Shown here: piece by piece, positions 24,122 through 27,066 of the stretch
Numbering within the stretch: the first letter of the stretch is position 1
Layout: the number at the start of each line of letters is the position of its first letter
DNA from: a virus
Taxonomy: Duplodnaviria; Heunggongvirae; Uroviricota; Caudoviricetes
Virus record (IMG/VR): IMGVR_UViG_2563366877_000003
Span: 1-41,474 of that record
DNA length: 41,474 bases
Strand: one strand, 5' to 3'
Made by a program: the position numbers and the translations under genes
Notes under the pieces: model-generated
Databases searched by the model: none
What the model was told of the DNA's origin: nothing
Seen by the model: only the letters and a program-made list of their open reading frames with translations

Positions 24122-24589
24122 TCATCGAAGGCATTGTGTCCTGATATATTCCTGAAGCGTTCTCAGTGCTGTTTGGTCGCGGATAATTCCGTCCCGGATA
24201 TCGAGAACGTTTCGTCCAGCAACTGGAGAGAGTTCGACGGAGGCATCATTGCCCATGCCGGAGGCGCTGGAGGTTTCGGCTGAGGATGGCATAGGGCATT
24301 TTCCTTTGACGAACACCCGACCACCATTATCAAGCTTGCGCCGAAGAGCATCATTTTCAGCTTTCGCATCAGCTAACTCCTTCGTGTATTTAGCATCGAG
24401 TGCATCAGCAGCACGCTGGCGTTGCTGCATGTCAGTAATGGTGGCAGTCGCCTGCTTCAGCTCACTGACTTTTTTATCGCGCTGCTCTTTGTAGGTCATG
24501 GCGTTATCACGGTAATGATTAACAGCCAATGACAGGCAGACGATGATGCAGATAACCAGAGCGGAGATAATCGCGGTGACTCTGCTCAT
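24122..24589 (-). CDS. Rz: Spanin inner-membrane subunit Rz
   Basis: 155 aa, [20 protein letters not shown]...AVNHYRDNA...[20 protein letters not shown] matches lambda Rz. Confidence 0.9.
24163..24369 (-). CDS. Rz1: Spanin outer-membrane lipoprotein Rz1 (embedded in Rz, +1 frame)
   Basis: ORF wholly inside Rz; lipobox VVGC and proline-rich PPAPPAW as in lambda Rz1. Confidence 0.8.
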
Positions 24590-25062
24590 ACCTCAATCTC
24601 TCTGACCGTTCCGCCAGCCTCTTTGAATTTTGCAATCAGGTTGTCAGCCTTATGCTCGAACTGACCATAACCAGCGCCCGGCAGTGAAGCCCAGATATTG
24701 CTGCAACGGTCGATAGCCTGACAAATATCACCGCGATCAATCATCGGTAAAGCGCCACGCTCTTTAATCTGTTGCAGTGCCACAGCGTCCTGGCTTTTCG
24801 GAGAGAAGTCTTTCAGGCCAAGCTGCTTGCGGTAGGCATCCCACCAACGGGAAAGAAGCTGGTAACGTCCGGCTGCTGTTGATTTGAGTTTTGGGTTTAG
24901 CGTGACAAGTTTGCGAGGGTGATCGGAGTAATCAGTGAATAGCTCTCCGCCTACAATGACGTCATAACCATGATTTCTGGTTTTCTGCCGTCCGTTATCA
25001 GTTCCCTCCGACCACGCCAGCATATCGAGGAACGCCTTACGTTGATTATTGATTTCCACCAT
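24586..25062 (-). CDS. R: Endolysin R (lytic transglycosylase)
   Basis: 158 aa, near-identical to recalled lambda R ([35 protein letters not shown]...). Confidence 0.95.
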
Positions 25063-25369
25063 CTTCTACTCCGGCTTTTTTAGCAGCGAAGCGTTTGATA
25101 AGCGAACCAATCGAGTCAGTGCCGATATAGCCGATGAACACGCTCGTTATATAAGCGAGATTGCTACTTAGTCCGGCGAAGTCGAGAAGGTCACGAATGA
25201 ACCAGGCGATAATGGCGCACATCGTTGCGTCGATTACTGTTTTTGTAAACGCACCGCCATTATATCTGCCGCGAAGGTACGCCATTGCAAACGCAAGGAT
25301 TGCCCCGATGCCTTGTTCCTTTGCCGCGAGAATGGCGGCTAACAGGTCATGTTTTTCTGGCATCTTCAT
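25046..25369 (-). CDS. S: Holin S (class I, dual start)
   Basis: 107 aa [22 protein letters not shown]..., lambda S with dual-start MKM; upstream CCCCTTCTGGGGG hairpin as in lambda. Confidence 0.95.
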
Positions 25370-26170
25370 GTCTTACCCCCAGAAGGGGATCTGTTCAAAT
25401 TAGGAATTATGGATATGGTCGCTTGAACAAATCCGGGTTACGGTTGATTTGTAACGGGCTTGTTCGTGACCGCATTCATGAGCAAATCAGGCGTGGATTG
25501 CGCCAACAATACATGCCGCTCATATCACGAAGCCCAGCCATTGATGCTGGGTTTTCTTTTTTAAAGCGCACTAGACAACCGTATCCACAGAGTGTCAGCA
25601 ATGAGTTGGTTAGGTCTGGTTCTTGGTGGAAGTACGCTTTAAAAAATGGGCTGAGGGTTGTAGCCCAAAATACTGAGGGAATGGTAAGGATGAACAACGG
25701 TTTTGCTCTGGGTGGATTTGGCTGTGGTGGCCGGCGCTGATCTCCGGCTTGTATACAGGCACCTTGTTCTTCCGAAGCTCTCCTGCGCGCATCAGCCTGC
25801 GCATTCACCACACCGGAAAGAGCACTCAGTTGTATCGGCCAGTTGTGCCACTAAGAAATGCTTTCGCAGACCGTTAAGCTCTTTGCCAGTTCTTTAATGC
25901 TCTTACCTGTTGTGTGCCCATTATTAATCACACCGGGCCAGTGCGCCGAATTTGTTTACAAGGAGTCGGAAGACCTTGCTGACTTACAGGCTATTACGCC
26001 GCCATCAGAACAACATCATCGTTTGCATTTATCTTTGTGGTCAGTTTCTAAAAAACCGCAAAGTCGCCAACTCTGACGAAAACTATCGTTGTGCTGCCAC
26101 AACGATAAGAGCACTCGGTGCATTTAAGCCAAGCCCCATAAGGGAGAATGCTCTTACCTGTTACACAGAT

Positions 26171-26229
26171 ATAAAAAATCCCGAAACCGTTATGCAGGCT
26201 CTAACTATTACCTGCGAACTGTTTCGGGA
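26171..26229 (-). terminator. Late terminator tR' (end of the short pR' transcript)
   Basis: Minus strand CCCGAAAC...GTTTCGGG hairpin followed by TTTTTTAT; matches recalled lambda tR'. Confidence 0.8.
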
Positions 26230-26362
26230 TTGCATTTTACAGACCTCTCAGCCTGCGATGGTTGGAGTTCCAGACGATGCGTCGAAGTGACCAACTAGGC
26301 GGAATCGGTAGTAAGCGCCGCCTCTTTTTATCTCACTACCACAACGAGCGAATTAACCCATC

Positions 26363-26400
26363 GTTGGGTCAAATTTACCCAACTTTATTCAAAAAGTCAA
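26363..26400 (-). promoter_or_regulatory. Late promoter pR' with overlapping Q-utilisation (qut) site
   Basis: Minus strand TTGACT (26400..26395), 17-bp spacer, TAAATT (26377..26372); sequence matches lambda pR'. Confidence 0.8.
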
Positions 26401-26442
26401 TATTATGCCGTTAACATGTTGCCATCCGTGGCAATTATGCTG

Positions 26443-27066
26443 CTAACGTGTGACCGCATTCAAAATGTTGTCTGCGATTGACTCTTCCTTGTGGCATTGC
26501 ACCACCAGAGCGTCATACAGCGGCTTAACAGTGCGTGACCAGGTGGGTTGGGTAAGGTTTGGGATTAGCATCGTTACAGCGCGATATGCGGCGCTTGCTG
26601 GCATCCTTGAATAGCCGACACCTTTGCATCTTCCGCATTCTTTCTCAACAACTCTCCCCCACTGCTCTGTTTTTGCTATATCAACCGCACGGCCTGTACC
26701 GTGACAATCTCTGCATCTTGCGCCAGGCGTCGCGGCACTACGGCAATAATCCGCATAAGCGAATGTTGCGAGCACTTGCAGTACCTTTGCCTTAGTATTT
26801 CCTTCTAGCTTTGCCACACCACGGTATTTCCCCGATACCTTGTGTGCAAATTGCATCAGATAGTTGATAGCCTTTTGTTTGTCGTTCTGGCTGAGTTCGT
26901 GCTTACCACAGAATGCAGCCATTCCGAATCCGGCTTGTGATTGCGCCATCCCCATAGCAGCCATCACATCAGTACCGGAAAGAGAGTCAGAAGCCGTGGC
27001 CCGTGGTGAGTCACTCATCATCGGGCTTTTTGGCGAATGAAATTTAGCCACGCTTTCGAGTCTCAT
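26443..27066 (-). CDS. Q: Late antiterminator Q
   Basis: 207 aa, matches recalled lambda Q including the CRDCHGTGR...CGRCKGVG zinc-binding region. Confidence 0.95.

Follow-up and report, generated by a model that had tools for sequence, protein, structure and literature searches.

A transfer-messenger RNA-like core RNA in the Q–S interval of a lambdoid prophage and at other enterobacterial phage loci

Layout of the Q–S interval

Between genes Q and S of the Caudoviricetes record IMGVR_UViG_2563366877_000003 of IMG/VR, analyzed here over its whole length of 41,474 nucleotides (nt; hereafter the window), lies an insert that resembles the message half of transfer-messenger RNA (tmRNA) and that we refer to as the core. 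The late genes are on the minus strand, and the interval 25370..26442 is the Q–S spacer of the late transcript, with a length of 1073 bp as against about 680 bp in lambda. An earlier note on this DNA had described the interval as nearly identical to lambda from the late promoter pR' to the terminator tR', free of toxin cargo and, over about 0.8 kb, without a credible reading frame. These points were borne out: positions 26500..26147 align with lambda 44452..44805 at 96.0% identity with 0 gaps over 354 nt, a lambda-like block that runs from the last part of Q through pR', qut and the 6S region to tR', with the promoter hexamers, qut and the tR' hairpin colinear with lambda directly after Q. Neither stx nor a credible protein gene was found in the interval, where the open reading frames (ORFs) are short and overlapping. 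The interval is nevertheless not empty: the 251 bp between the two copies of a 16-mer carry a highly conserved, structured, tmRNA-like core that occurs in hundreds of unrelated phages. The features are given below in the order of the late transcript, followed by the adjoining genes.

26372..26400, minus strand: late promoter pR', TTGACT-17-TAAATT (−35 at 26400..26395, −10 at 26377..26372), from a consensus scan, the 96% ungapped identity with lambda and the HK620 annotation of the homologous pR'/qut
26171..26231, minus strand: terminator tR', ending the lambda-type 6S RNA; stem 26231..26177, then a U run; an inverted repeat colinear with lambda
26147..26162, plus strand: 16-mer copy 2, exact match, the reverse complement of the 5' arm of H module B
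26106..26162, minus strand: H module B, a long hairpin; 5' arm 26162..26147 (the first 16-mer of the late strand), 3' arm GAGUGCUCUUA at 26116..26106, interior motif GGGGCUUGGCUUAAAUGCA; inverted repeat, fold −25.1 kcal/mol, z −3.55
26084..26107, minus strand: collapsed T module, hairpin GUUGUG-GCAG-CACAAC, z −5.9; its stem is the T-module closing stem GUUGUGGYG/CRCCACAAC with the interior missing
25916..26087, minus strand: tmRNA-like core RNA, about 172 nt, with a 5' domain, an A-rich single strand, the tag frame, helix 5 and two H-type pseudoknots; from sub-threshold Rfam tmRNA matches, conservation and covariation
25994..26026, minus strand: tag frame GCA AAC GAU GAU GUU GUU CUG AUG GCG GCG UAA = ANDDVVLMAA*; resume codon GCA at 26026..26024, preceded by UAAAU
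25946..25978, minus strand: pseudoknot a, S1 CAAGG/CCUUG (25978..25974 with 25963..25959), S2 CCGA/UCGG (25969..25966 with 25949..25946); 100% of cells paired in both helices, double changes in 6/9 pairs
25916..25945, minus strand: pseudoknot b, S1 CGCAC/GUGUG (25945..25941 with 25933..25929), S2 GCCC/GGGC (25938..25935 with 25919..25916), invariant loop UGAUUAAUAA; S1 99.4% paired, C-G/G-C/U-A covariation at one pair
25896..25911, plus strand: 16-mer copy 1, exact match, the reverse complement of the 5' arm of H module A
25815..25911, minus strand: H module A; 5' arm 25911..25896 (the second 16-mer of the late strand), 3' arm GAGUGCUCUUUCC at 25827..25815; predicted stem, interior structure insignificant (z −0.07)
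25719..25814, minus strand: T module, a tRNA-like cloverleaf with acceptor-like stem UGUGGUG/CACCACA, D-like and T-like hairpins with complementary loops, and 3' G-CCA; fold −39.1 kcal/mol, z −2.6, covariation across loci
25641..25666, minus strand: intrinsic-terminator-like hairpin GGGCU..AGCCC with U run, after the T module; by our own reading of the sequence homologous to the annotated HK620 late terminator 'tQ' (94% HK620 identity)
26443..27066, minus strand: Q, late-gene regulator
25046..25369, minus strand: S, late gene
24586..25062, minus strand: R, late gene
24122..24589, minus strand: Rz, late gene

The repeats define how the core sits relative to lambda. The duplicated 16-mer reported in the earlier note, AATGCTCTTACCTGTT, is present in exact copies at 25896..25911 (+) and 26147..26162 (+), spaced 251 bp apart, and these are its sole two matches in the 41-kb window even when up to 3 mismatches are allowed (two or more matches at that looseness arise in 7/100 shuffles; two exact copies are far rarer). 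Lambda homology ends precisely at 26147, the end of the first 16-mer on the late strand; positions 25914..25896, comprising the second 16-mer and 3 nt, match the same lambda bases again at 100%, and 25826..25803 correspond to lambda sequence 40 nt further on. Relative to lambda there are thus two copies of a single sequence with 251 bp inserted between them, and the 16-mers are the junctions of the core cassette.

Each 16-mer is the 5' arm of an H module, a long hairpin of the form ..ACAGGUAAGAGCAUU (variable interior) (G/C)AGUGCUCUUUCC.. found in many related loci. Among 122 distinct H modules near related elements we counted 46 arm-pair variants, many of them fully compensatory (for example GAGCAUU/AGUGCUC, GCUGCUU/AGGCAGC, GGCAAUU/AGUUGCC and UGACACU/AGUGUCA). 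The suggestion of a duplication or insertion scar thus keeps its second half, the 16-mers bracketing an insertion, but not the decayed tandem duplication, as the arms covary. A second, diverged repeat pair of 23 nt at 25808 and 26097 (83% identical, 289 bp apart) is presumably the related motif that had been noticed next to the 16-mers, although it lies on the other side of the units and not directly after the 16-mer. The hairpin that had been assigned to one repeat copy with a 9-bp stem, TATCGTTGTG-GCAG-CACAACGATA at 26084..26107, is real, with 10-11 bp and −14.2 kcal/mol (z −5.9), but it is the collapsed T module and lies outside the repeat unit.

The window is mosaic here, lambda-like down to 26147 and HK620-like (94%) over 26088..25300. 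On the late strand the order is tR', H(B), collapsed T, core, H(A), T, terminator and S, and in lambda the same slot holds tR', H and T. Stx phages have tRNAs and stx in the Q–S slot. In mEp506 and Kapi1, tRNA-Asn and tRNA-Thr stand in it directly after tR'; ARAGORN called no tRNA or tmRNA in the 41-kb window or at the element of related loci. We regard the Q–S interval as a place where cassettes of structured RNA are carried as cargo on the late (minus) strand.

Tag frame and fold of the core

A permissive Rfam scan returned weak tmRNA matches at 25994..26048 (−), over the sequence AUAAAUGCAAACGAUGAUGUUGUUCUGAUGGCGGCGUAA, and matches in the tag region were obtained in the window, wV8, ZCEC08 and SP076 with E values of 1e-2 to 1e-4. 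The motif ATAAATGCAAACGA occurs once in the window, within the core. The junction UAAAU|GCA at 26031..26024 is invariant in 11 homologues found by BLAST, and the tag frame that starts there has no in-frame AUG, GUG or UUG start; an in-frame UAG lies 24 nt upstream in the window. In E. coli tmRNA, U85 and A86 precede the resume codon, A86 being the main frame-setting nucleotide, and the tag is ANDENYALAA (PMC2481249). U(-5) and A(-4) of the core correspond to U85 and A86.

Further copies were collected from IMG/VR with a pattern scan that fixed only ATAAATGCAAACGA and TGATTAATAA at 75-105 nt from each other. At least 119 stretches were listed, which together with the phage loci gave 130 copies with 77 distinct cores. 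In all 130 copies listed, exactly 10 sense codons run from GCA to a stop, and all three stop codons are used (TAA 115, TGA 13, TAG 2). Codon 3 is solely Asp or Glu; codon 6 encodes V, Y, F, M or I throughout; codon 7 is CTG in 109 and TTG in 17 (126/130), with Arg or Lys in the remaining 4; and codon 10 encodes Ala in every copy through four synonymous codons (GCG 40, GCT 38, GCC 51, GCA 1). The 19 tag variants among these copies, such as ANDDVVLMAA, ANEEMYLAVA, ANDNVFLAVA, ANDEQFLAVA, ANDDLMLMAA, ANDNTFLAVA and ANDSEMRVAA, are of the general type (A)AN[DE]xx[hydrophobic]Lx[A/V]A. Translation is favoured by the constancy of the frame length, of the terminal Ala and of the stop.

No other frame behaves in this way. 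An overlapping AUG frame (MQT...) varies in length from 7 to 12 codons and is not conserved, and in a set of 36 diverse homologues each frame of either strand is interrupted within the core in at least one of them, on which ground a conventional protein gene was rejected. Short antisense coding sequences annotated as 'hypothetical protein' overlie the core in some phages (wV8 gene 49, L006 1486-1626; Bas78_0056/57, L008 755-1281), and an antisense ORF can be called in the window at 25858..26076 (+). Since no antisense frame is open in all homologues, these 'hypothetical proteins' are probably annotation artefacts over an RNA gene.

The relation to bacterial tmRNA was compared with a profile of the 36 cores. 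Its only match to ssrA of MG1655 is in register; it begins shortly before the resume codon, ends shortly after the stop and scores 6.8 bits (E 0.0018 in 2 kb). The part of the core that can be aligned to enterobacterial ssrA is only 48 nt long, and the core was therefore not captured recently from the host. Predicted pairing of the core with E. coli tmRNA (RNAduplex) yielded full-length duplexes without meaning and z-scores at odds with each other, and was discarded.

The fold of the core was examined in an alignment of the 36 diverse cores with six specified helices (26 pairs) and with slid-partner and shuffle controls. Helix E encloses the end of the frame, and a hairpin similar to helix 5 has the stop codon in its loop; the other four helices are the two stems of each H-type pseudoknot. 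Standard pairs are formed in 91.9% of the pair cells, compared with 30-43% when partners are slid by 1-3 columns; 18/26 pairs have changes on both sides, and 0/500 shuffles reached the observed values. The model was drawn from the same 36 sequences and is somewhat favoured by this, but its margin over the slid controls is nonetheless large. In pseudoknot a, S1 takes the forms CAAGG/CCUUG, UGAGG/CCUCA, CGGGG/CCCCG, CAGGG/CCCUG and CAUGG/CCAUG, and S2 the forms CCGA/UCGG, CCAG/CUGG and CCAA/UUGG. In pseudoknot b, the S2 hairpin stem has been swapped wholesale in some phages with the loop UGAUUAAUAA unchanged. Two H-type pseudoknots follow the frame, and no PK1, third or fourth pseudoknot was found in the core. 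By eye, the 5' domain (GAUAGUUUUCG...GCGACUUUGCGG...UAGAAACUGACC) resembles the 5' P2 region of tmRNA.

The analysis shows that the inserted RNA is conserved and structured and has all the recognizable features of the message half of tmRNA but none of those of the tRNA half. The core thus appears to descend from, or closely to mimic, the mRNA-like half of tmRNA.

Carriers and neighbouring modules

In a distant BLAST search with the query 25560..26175, the core segment was matched in 763 of 50,697 phage records. The carriers belong to unrelated groups and include HK620 (Lederbergvirus), the T1-like siphoviruses ZCEC08 and Bas78, the Ackermannviridae (Vi1-like) with Kuttervirus SenASZ3 and selz and Taipeivirus cp21, the N4-like Schitovirus SP076 (Schitoviridae), the Ounavirinae (Felix O1-like) with Felixounavirus wV8 and Mooglevirus KMM2, and an Aeromonas phage. 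In lytic carriers the core lies on the same strand as the tRNA genes, within or beside their clusters, where it has no annotation or is covered by short 'hypothetical proteins', and a near-consensus TTGACA-N17-TAnnnT stands immediately upstream in 42 of the 130 copies listed, these being from lytic phages. The element is also carried by 137 of 5,426 complete E. coli genomes, always on the chromosome, and the RefSeq annotation is blank at the locus in all 137. Among GTDB species representatives there are four carriers, all Enterobacterales: two species of Rosenbergiella, one Pseudocitrobacter and one Pantoea.

This distribution bears on the suggestion that the insert is a functionless decayed duplication or insertion scar, or a hitch-hiking captured ssrA fragment spread recently by recombination at the conserved hairpin arms. 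The 16-mers that flank the insertion relative to lambda, the mosaic make-up of the region (lambda-like to 26147, HK620-like from 26088) and the high identity among unrelated phages would fit such a history. It is nevertheless a very unlikely one in our view, because compensatory changes are seen in the six core helices as well as in the stems of the H and T modules, none of the 19 tag variants is broken, lytic phages retain the core in their tRNA clusters, in many cases with a near-consensus promoter, and the 48 nt alignable to enterobacterial ssrA speak against a recent host capture.

A promoter scan found no promoter-like site between tR' and the core on the late strand, and transcription of the cassette in the prophage would therefore be expected only upon Q-driven read-through of tR'. 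In nearly all promoterless copies, a strong hairpin (the H 3' arm, the collapsed T module or a Kuttervirus hairpin) is immediately followed by the core sequence GUUUUCG, at 26083..26108 (−) in the window. A terminator scan flags the combination as resembling a terminator, and it may act in pausing, termination or processing and so set the 5' end of the core. Small RNAs (sRNAs) have been mapped to the neighbourhood of the Q–holin interval, namely StxS (PMC7547250) and the Pas sRNAs (bioRxiv 10.64898/2026.05.13.724894), and their descriptions draw no connection to tmRNA. These sRNAs, the hairpins of about 20 bp on the flanks of the core and the terminator-like hairpin followed by UUUUCG would suit either a cis-acting element of late expression, acting in processing, stability or attenuation of the S-R-Rz transcript, or a base-pairing sRNA of the Hfq type. 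We consider both quite improbable, as the same core lies in tRNA clusters of lytic phages far from lysis genes, has no 3' terminator of its own and has a conserved tag frame that such a role would leave unexplained. Rfam matches to rydB, isrJ, RprA and RyhB were set aside as terminator or hairpin look-alikes. On the opposite strand, a good intrinsic terminator at 25529..25555 (+), GAAGCCCAGCCATTGATGCTGGGTTTT followed by CTTTTTT, lies about 160 bp upstream of S and weakly matches Rfam isrJ; it implies a convergent transcript that ends within the Q–S spacer.

Stable folds were obtained for the H module in unit B of the window and in lambda. The H(B) interior recurs in Mooglevirus KMM2 and at other loci with compensatorily changed arms; the motif GGGGCUUGGCUUAAAUGCA(C/A) is kept in it at 26120..26140 (−) of the window and in KMM2, L027, L047 and phiA050, and the part UUAAAUGCA resembles the resume context AUAAAUGCA of the core. 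Interiors of this type accompany the core in several phage groups, either on its upstream or on its downstream side.

The T module has a 9-bp acceptor-like stem, the D-like hairpin GCGCA-GGCUGA-UGCGC, a long arm with a 22-nt loop at the anticodon position, and the T-like hairpin GCCGG-AGAUCAGCG-CCGGC, which is stacked on the 3' strand ahead of G-CCA. The D-like and T-like loops, of 6 and 9 nt, can pair with each other; both hairpin stems covary across loci, and the loops show Watson-Crick complementarity (GCUGA/UCAGC) with a double compensatory change in L061 (GUCGA/UCGAC). This pairing looks like a kissing-loop substitute for the tRNA elbow. The module has U3:A70 and a non-canonical T-like loop, falls short of the features of a canonical tRNA and was not called as a tRNA by ARAGORN or by Rfam RF00005.

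Related modules were observed elsewhere. Directly after tR' in lambda (NC_001416 44787-44946; L003 636-795), an H hairpin with z −3.5 is followed by a closed T-type module with a 9-bp stem and z −3.85, which overlaps the end of the annotated orf-64 and ends in AGCACAA-C-CCA where mEp506 has the CCA end of tRNA-Thr. This points to a tRNA-like RNA in the Q–S spacer of lambda, for which, to our knowledge, no function has been described. In Felix O1-like phages, a D-armless tRNA-like gene lies directly downstream of the core (wV8, L006 1665-1743; the same in L027, L030 and L035). It has the acceptor CGGGGCG/CGCCUCG with G3:U70, A73-CCA, a UCU anticodon loop and a long variable arm, reaches 31.7 bits with the Rfam tRNA model and is not called by ARAGORN; its ends resemble the tRNA-like domain of tmRNA, and KMM2 and L031 have an ordinary tRNA-Arg(UCU) in its place. 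In Kuttervirus SenASZ3, at least three degenerate tRNA-like units with the canonical T-arms GUUCGAUUC, GGUUCGAGUCC and GGGUUCGACUCC surround the core (L005 1300-1915); a CCA end is seen in two, and ARAGORN calls none of them. Immediately next to the 5' end of this core stands a 12-bp hairpin, CUGUUUGAGUCC/GGACUCAAACAG, whose 5' arm could instead pair with a far 3' strand, AAACGGC-U-CCA.

Modules of this kind could in principle provide the missing half of a complete but highly divergent one-piece tmRNA. In the window, the 5' acceptor strand would be GUUGUGGC (26100..26093) and the 3' half the T-like hairpin with CACCACA-G-CCA (25750..25719), and the core and H(A) would lie between the halves, giving about 382 nt in total, which is a tmRNA-like size. 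At thresholds of 80-90%, ARAGORN reports the right tags with inconsistent 5' and 3' tRNA domains, often taken from neighbouring tRNAs; its calls at 85% are numerous and inconsistent, and a coherent one-piece model was obtained only in two relatives, L083 and L087, at 90%. These two calls have the proposed topology with ANDDVVLMAA and combine the upstream strand with a canonical T-arm, GCCGGUUCGAUUCCGGC in L083, and CGCCACA-A-CC at the downstream end of the T module. The G-CCA end of the T module in the window and a comparable duplicated 5' strand in Kuttervirus are in line with this model. In L037 and L083 the strand upstream of the core is a better partner for the 3' strand than the 5' strand of the T module itself, but covariation across loci is mixed and the pairing is contradicted in L025 and in the window, where the upstream strand forms 5/7 pairs compared with 7/7 for the module's own strand. 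In addition, there is no G3:U70, so that charging with alanine is not expected, the T-like loop of the window is non-canonical, and the near-consensus promoter of T1-like and Felix O1-like phages puts the predicted start after the putative 5' strand. Many cores have no downstream T module, and the other relaxed ARAGORN calls are inconsistent. We therefore consider a one-piece tmRNA unlikely. The permuted-tmRNA alignments of Rfam for SP076 and wV8 were also considered as a sign of a hidden tRNA-like domain, but they are uninformative, as they pass over 99 nt and are confined to the unstructured tag region.

Interpretation and relation to known tmRNAs

The core shares with tmRNA (SsrA; Rfam RF00023, clan CL00001) the A-rich single strand, U(-5)A(-4), the GCA resume codon, a start-less 10-codon frame with a tag of the AND...AA type, a stop in the loop of helix 5 and H-type pseudoknots after the frame. 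It differs in having no G3:U70 acceptor stem, canonical T-arm, joined ACCA or identified PK1, and in having two pseudoknots after the frame instead of three, a length of about 172 nt instead of about 363 and tag C-termini that are mostly AVA or MAA instead of LAA; it is also phage-borne and falls below every detection threshold. Two-piece (circularly permuted) tmRNAs are known from Alpha- and Betaproteobacteria and from cyanobacteria. They also occur in marine phages such as Melnitz (PMC9004378). The core is like their coding piece in that its message RNA is physically apart from an acceptor piece, and its resume context UAAAUGCAAACGAU is nearer to the permuted and beta consensus of Rfam than to that of E. 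coli. The coding pieces of two-piece tmRNAs, however, carry a 5' acceptor strand and pair with an acceptor piece from the same precursor, and neither is consistently present with the core; the upstream 5' strand and downstream 3' strand that are possible in some lineages pair and covary as described above.

Phage-carried tmRNA derivatives have precedents. A 2014 survey found phage tmRNAs in mycobacteriophages and Bacillus phage G only, with DS6A having a tRNA-like domain only (PMC4131195). The tmRNAs of the Bxz1 group and of phage G are complete and DS6A has the tRNA-like domain, whereas the core is the opposite half, is found in enterobacterial phages and is missed by ARAGORN at default settings. 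The 2025 database update discusses forms without a coding frame but none without a tRNA-like domain, and rejects truncated matches (PMC11915505). In an ARAGORN census, tmRNA was present in 2.3% of phage genomes (PMC9004378), and phage genome papers routinely report 'no tmRNA'. A description matching the element was not found in the searchable literature, and the tmRNA surveys list no such enterobacterial phage element (PMC4131195, PMC11915505, PMC9004378); the six commonest tag peptides were found in no paper of the openly searchable literature, subscription-only literature being outside the search. Compared with the other Q–S cargo of lambdoid phages, such as tRNA genes and sRNAs, the cassette lies in the same slot directly after tR' but consists of a tmRNA-like core and non-canonical tRNA-like modules, and not of a canonical tRNA or a terminator-bearing Hfq sRNA.

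It seems to us somewhat probable that the core is a phage-borne tmRNA derivative without a tRNA-like domain that serves as a tag template. After induction, Q-modified polymerase would pass tR' and transcribe the RNA array, and host RNase III, P or E might cut the flanking long hairpins and tRNA-like modules and so release the core. The released core would then be a template for trans-translation, by which stalled ribosomes add the phage-specified tag (A)AN[DE]xx[hydrophobic]Lx[A/V]A, and it could enter the ribosome through a tRNA-like partner in trans, either a neighbouring tRNA-like module or host tmRNA-SmpB. Release by processing, reading by ribosomes and a tRNA-like function supplied in trans are thus steps that we infer.

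Several observations weigh against this proposal. ARAGORN at default thresholds called tmRNA in 0 of the 130 flanked copies listed, and no Rfam model reached its gathering score (GA), the best values being 26.3 bits versus a GA of 47 (RF04321), 17.2 versus 84 (RF01850) and 15.4 versus 47 (RF00023). No canonical alanyl tRNA-like domain was recognized by ARAGORN, Rfam or manual inspection, and no acceptor stem with G3:U70 was present among the candidates linked to the core. T modules and cores occur independently, lambda having H and T without a core and Felix O1-like and Aeromonas phages having a core without a T module, so that the core cannot require a T module as its partner and no universal partner has been identified. 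Within the core, the 5'-domain helices AGUUUU/GAAACU (P2-like) and CUUUG/CAAAG were tried and fit some variants without clean covariation. The anchors ATAAATGCAAACGA and TGATTAATAA were fixed by the search pattern, which forces their invariance in the 130 copies, whereas frame length and stop were free to vary; codons 7-10 overlap helices, where nucleotide and amino-acid constraints are confounded; and the 72-95% identity among unrelated phages implies a recent horizontal spread that inflates the apparent conservation. Expression and processing of the cassette in this prophage are predicted. Finally, we know of no route by which an mRNA-like domain is loaded into a stalled ribosome without a covalently joined or base-paired tRNA-like domain, which argues for caution.

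The same lack of a tRNA-like domain would be expected of a non-translated mimic of the tmRNA message that modulates host trans-translation as a decoy or sponge for the SmpB tail, ribosomal protein S1, RNase R or a tmRNA-targeting defence nuclease. DS6A is a mirror case, as a molecule of this type, with little beyond the tRNA-like domain, inhibits tmRNA (PMC4131195), and the invariant loops UGAUUAAUAA and GGUCUUCC suggest the binding of a ligand. A decoy, however, would have no need of an exact 10-codon frame, of a terminal Ala kept through four synonymous codons or of a stop kept through three stop codons, and we assign it a low likelihood.

For the tag-template proposal, the widest form would be that at least five unrelated groups of enterobacterial phages, including the model phage HK620 and the prophage studied here, encode a free-standing tmRNA message domain that hijacks host trans-translation by way of a tRNA-like partner RNA or of host tmRNA-SmpB and tags the proteins of stalled ribosomes with AN[DE]xx[hydrophobic]Lx[A/V]A. 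We put this forward tentatively, as a possible but doubtful extension. If it is true, it would be a split ribosome-rescue system of new architecture within arrays of unrecognized tRNA-like and hairpin RNA cassettes. The current view of tmRNA is of one RNA, or of two pieces held together by base pairing, in which the tRNA half is indispensable. A lone, travelling message half would mean either an unknown way of delivering a tag template or phage mimics of tmRNA that manipulate ribosome rescue and proteolysis during infection. The carriers include groups with candidates for phage therapy (Felix O1-like, Vi1-like and T1-like) and prophages of Shiga toxin-producing E. coli, which standard pipelines list as 'no tmRNA', with nothing annotated at the locus. 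The supposedly empty Q–S spacer of lambdoid phages, that of lambda included, appears to be built of covarying hairpin and tRNA-like RNA modules, and this modular view provides a testable hypothesis for a stretch of lambda, the best-studied phage, without an assigned function.

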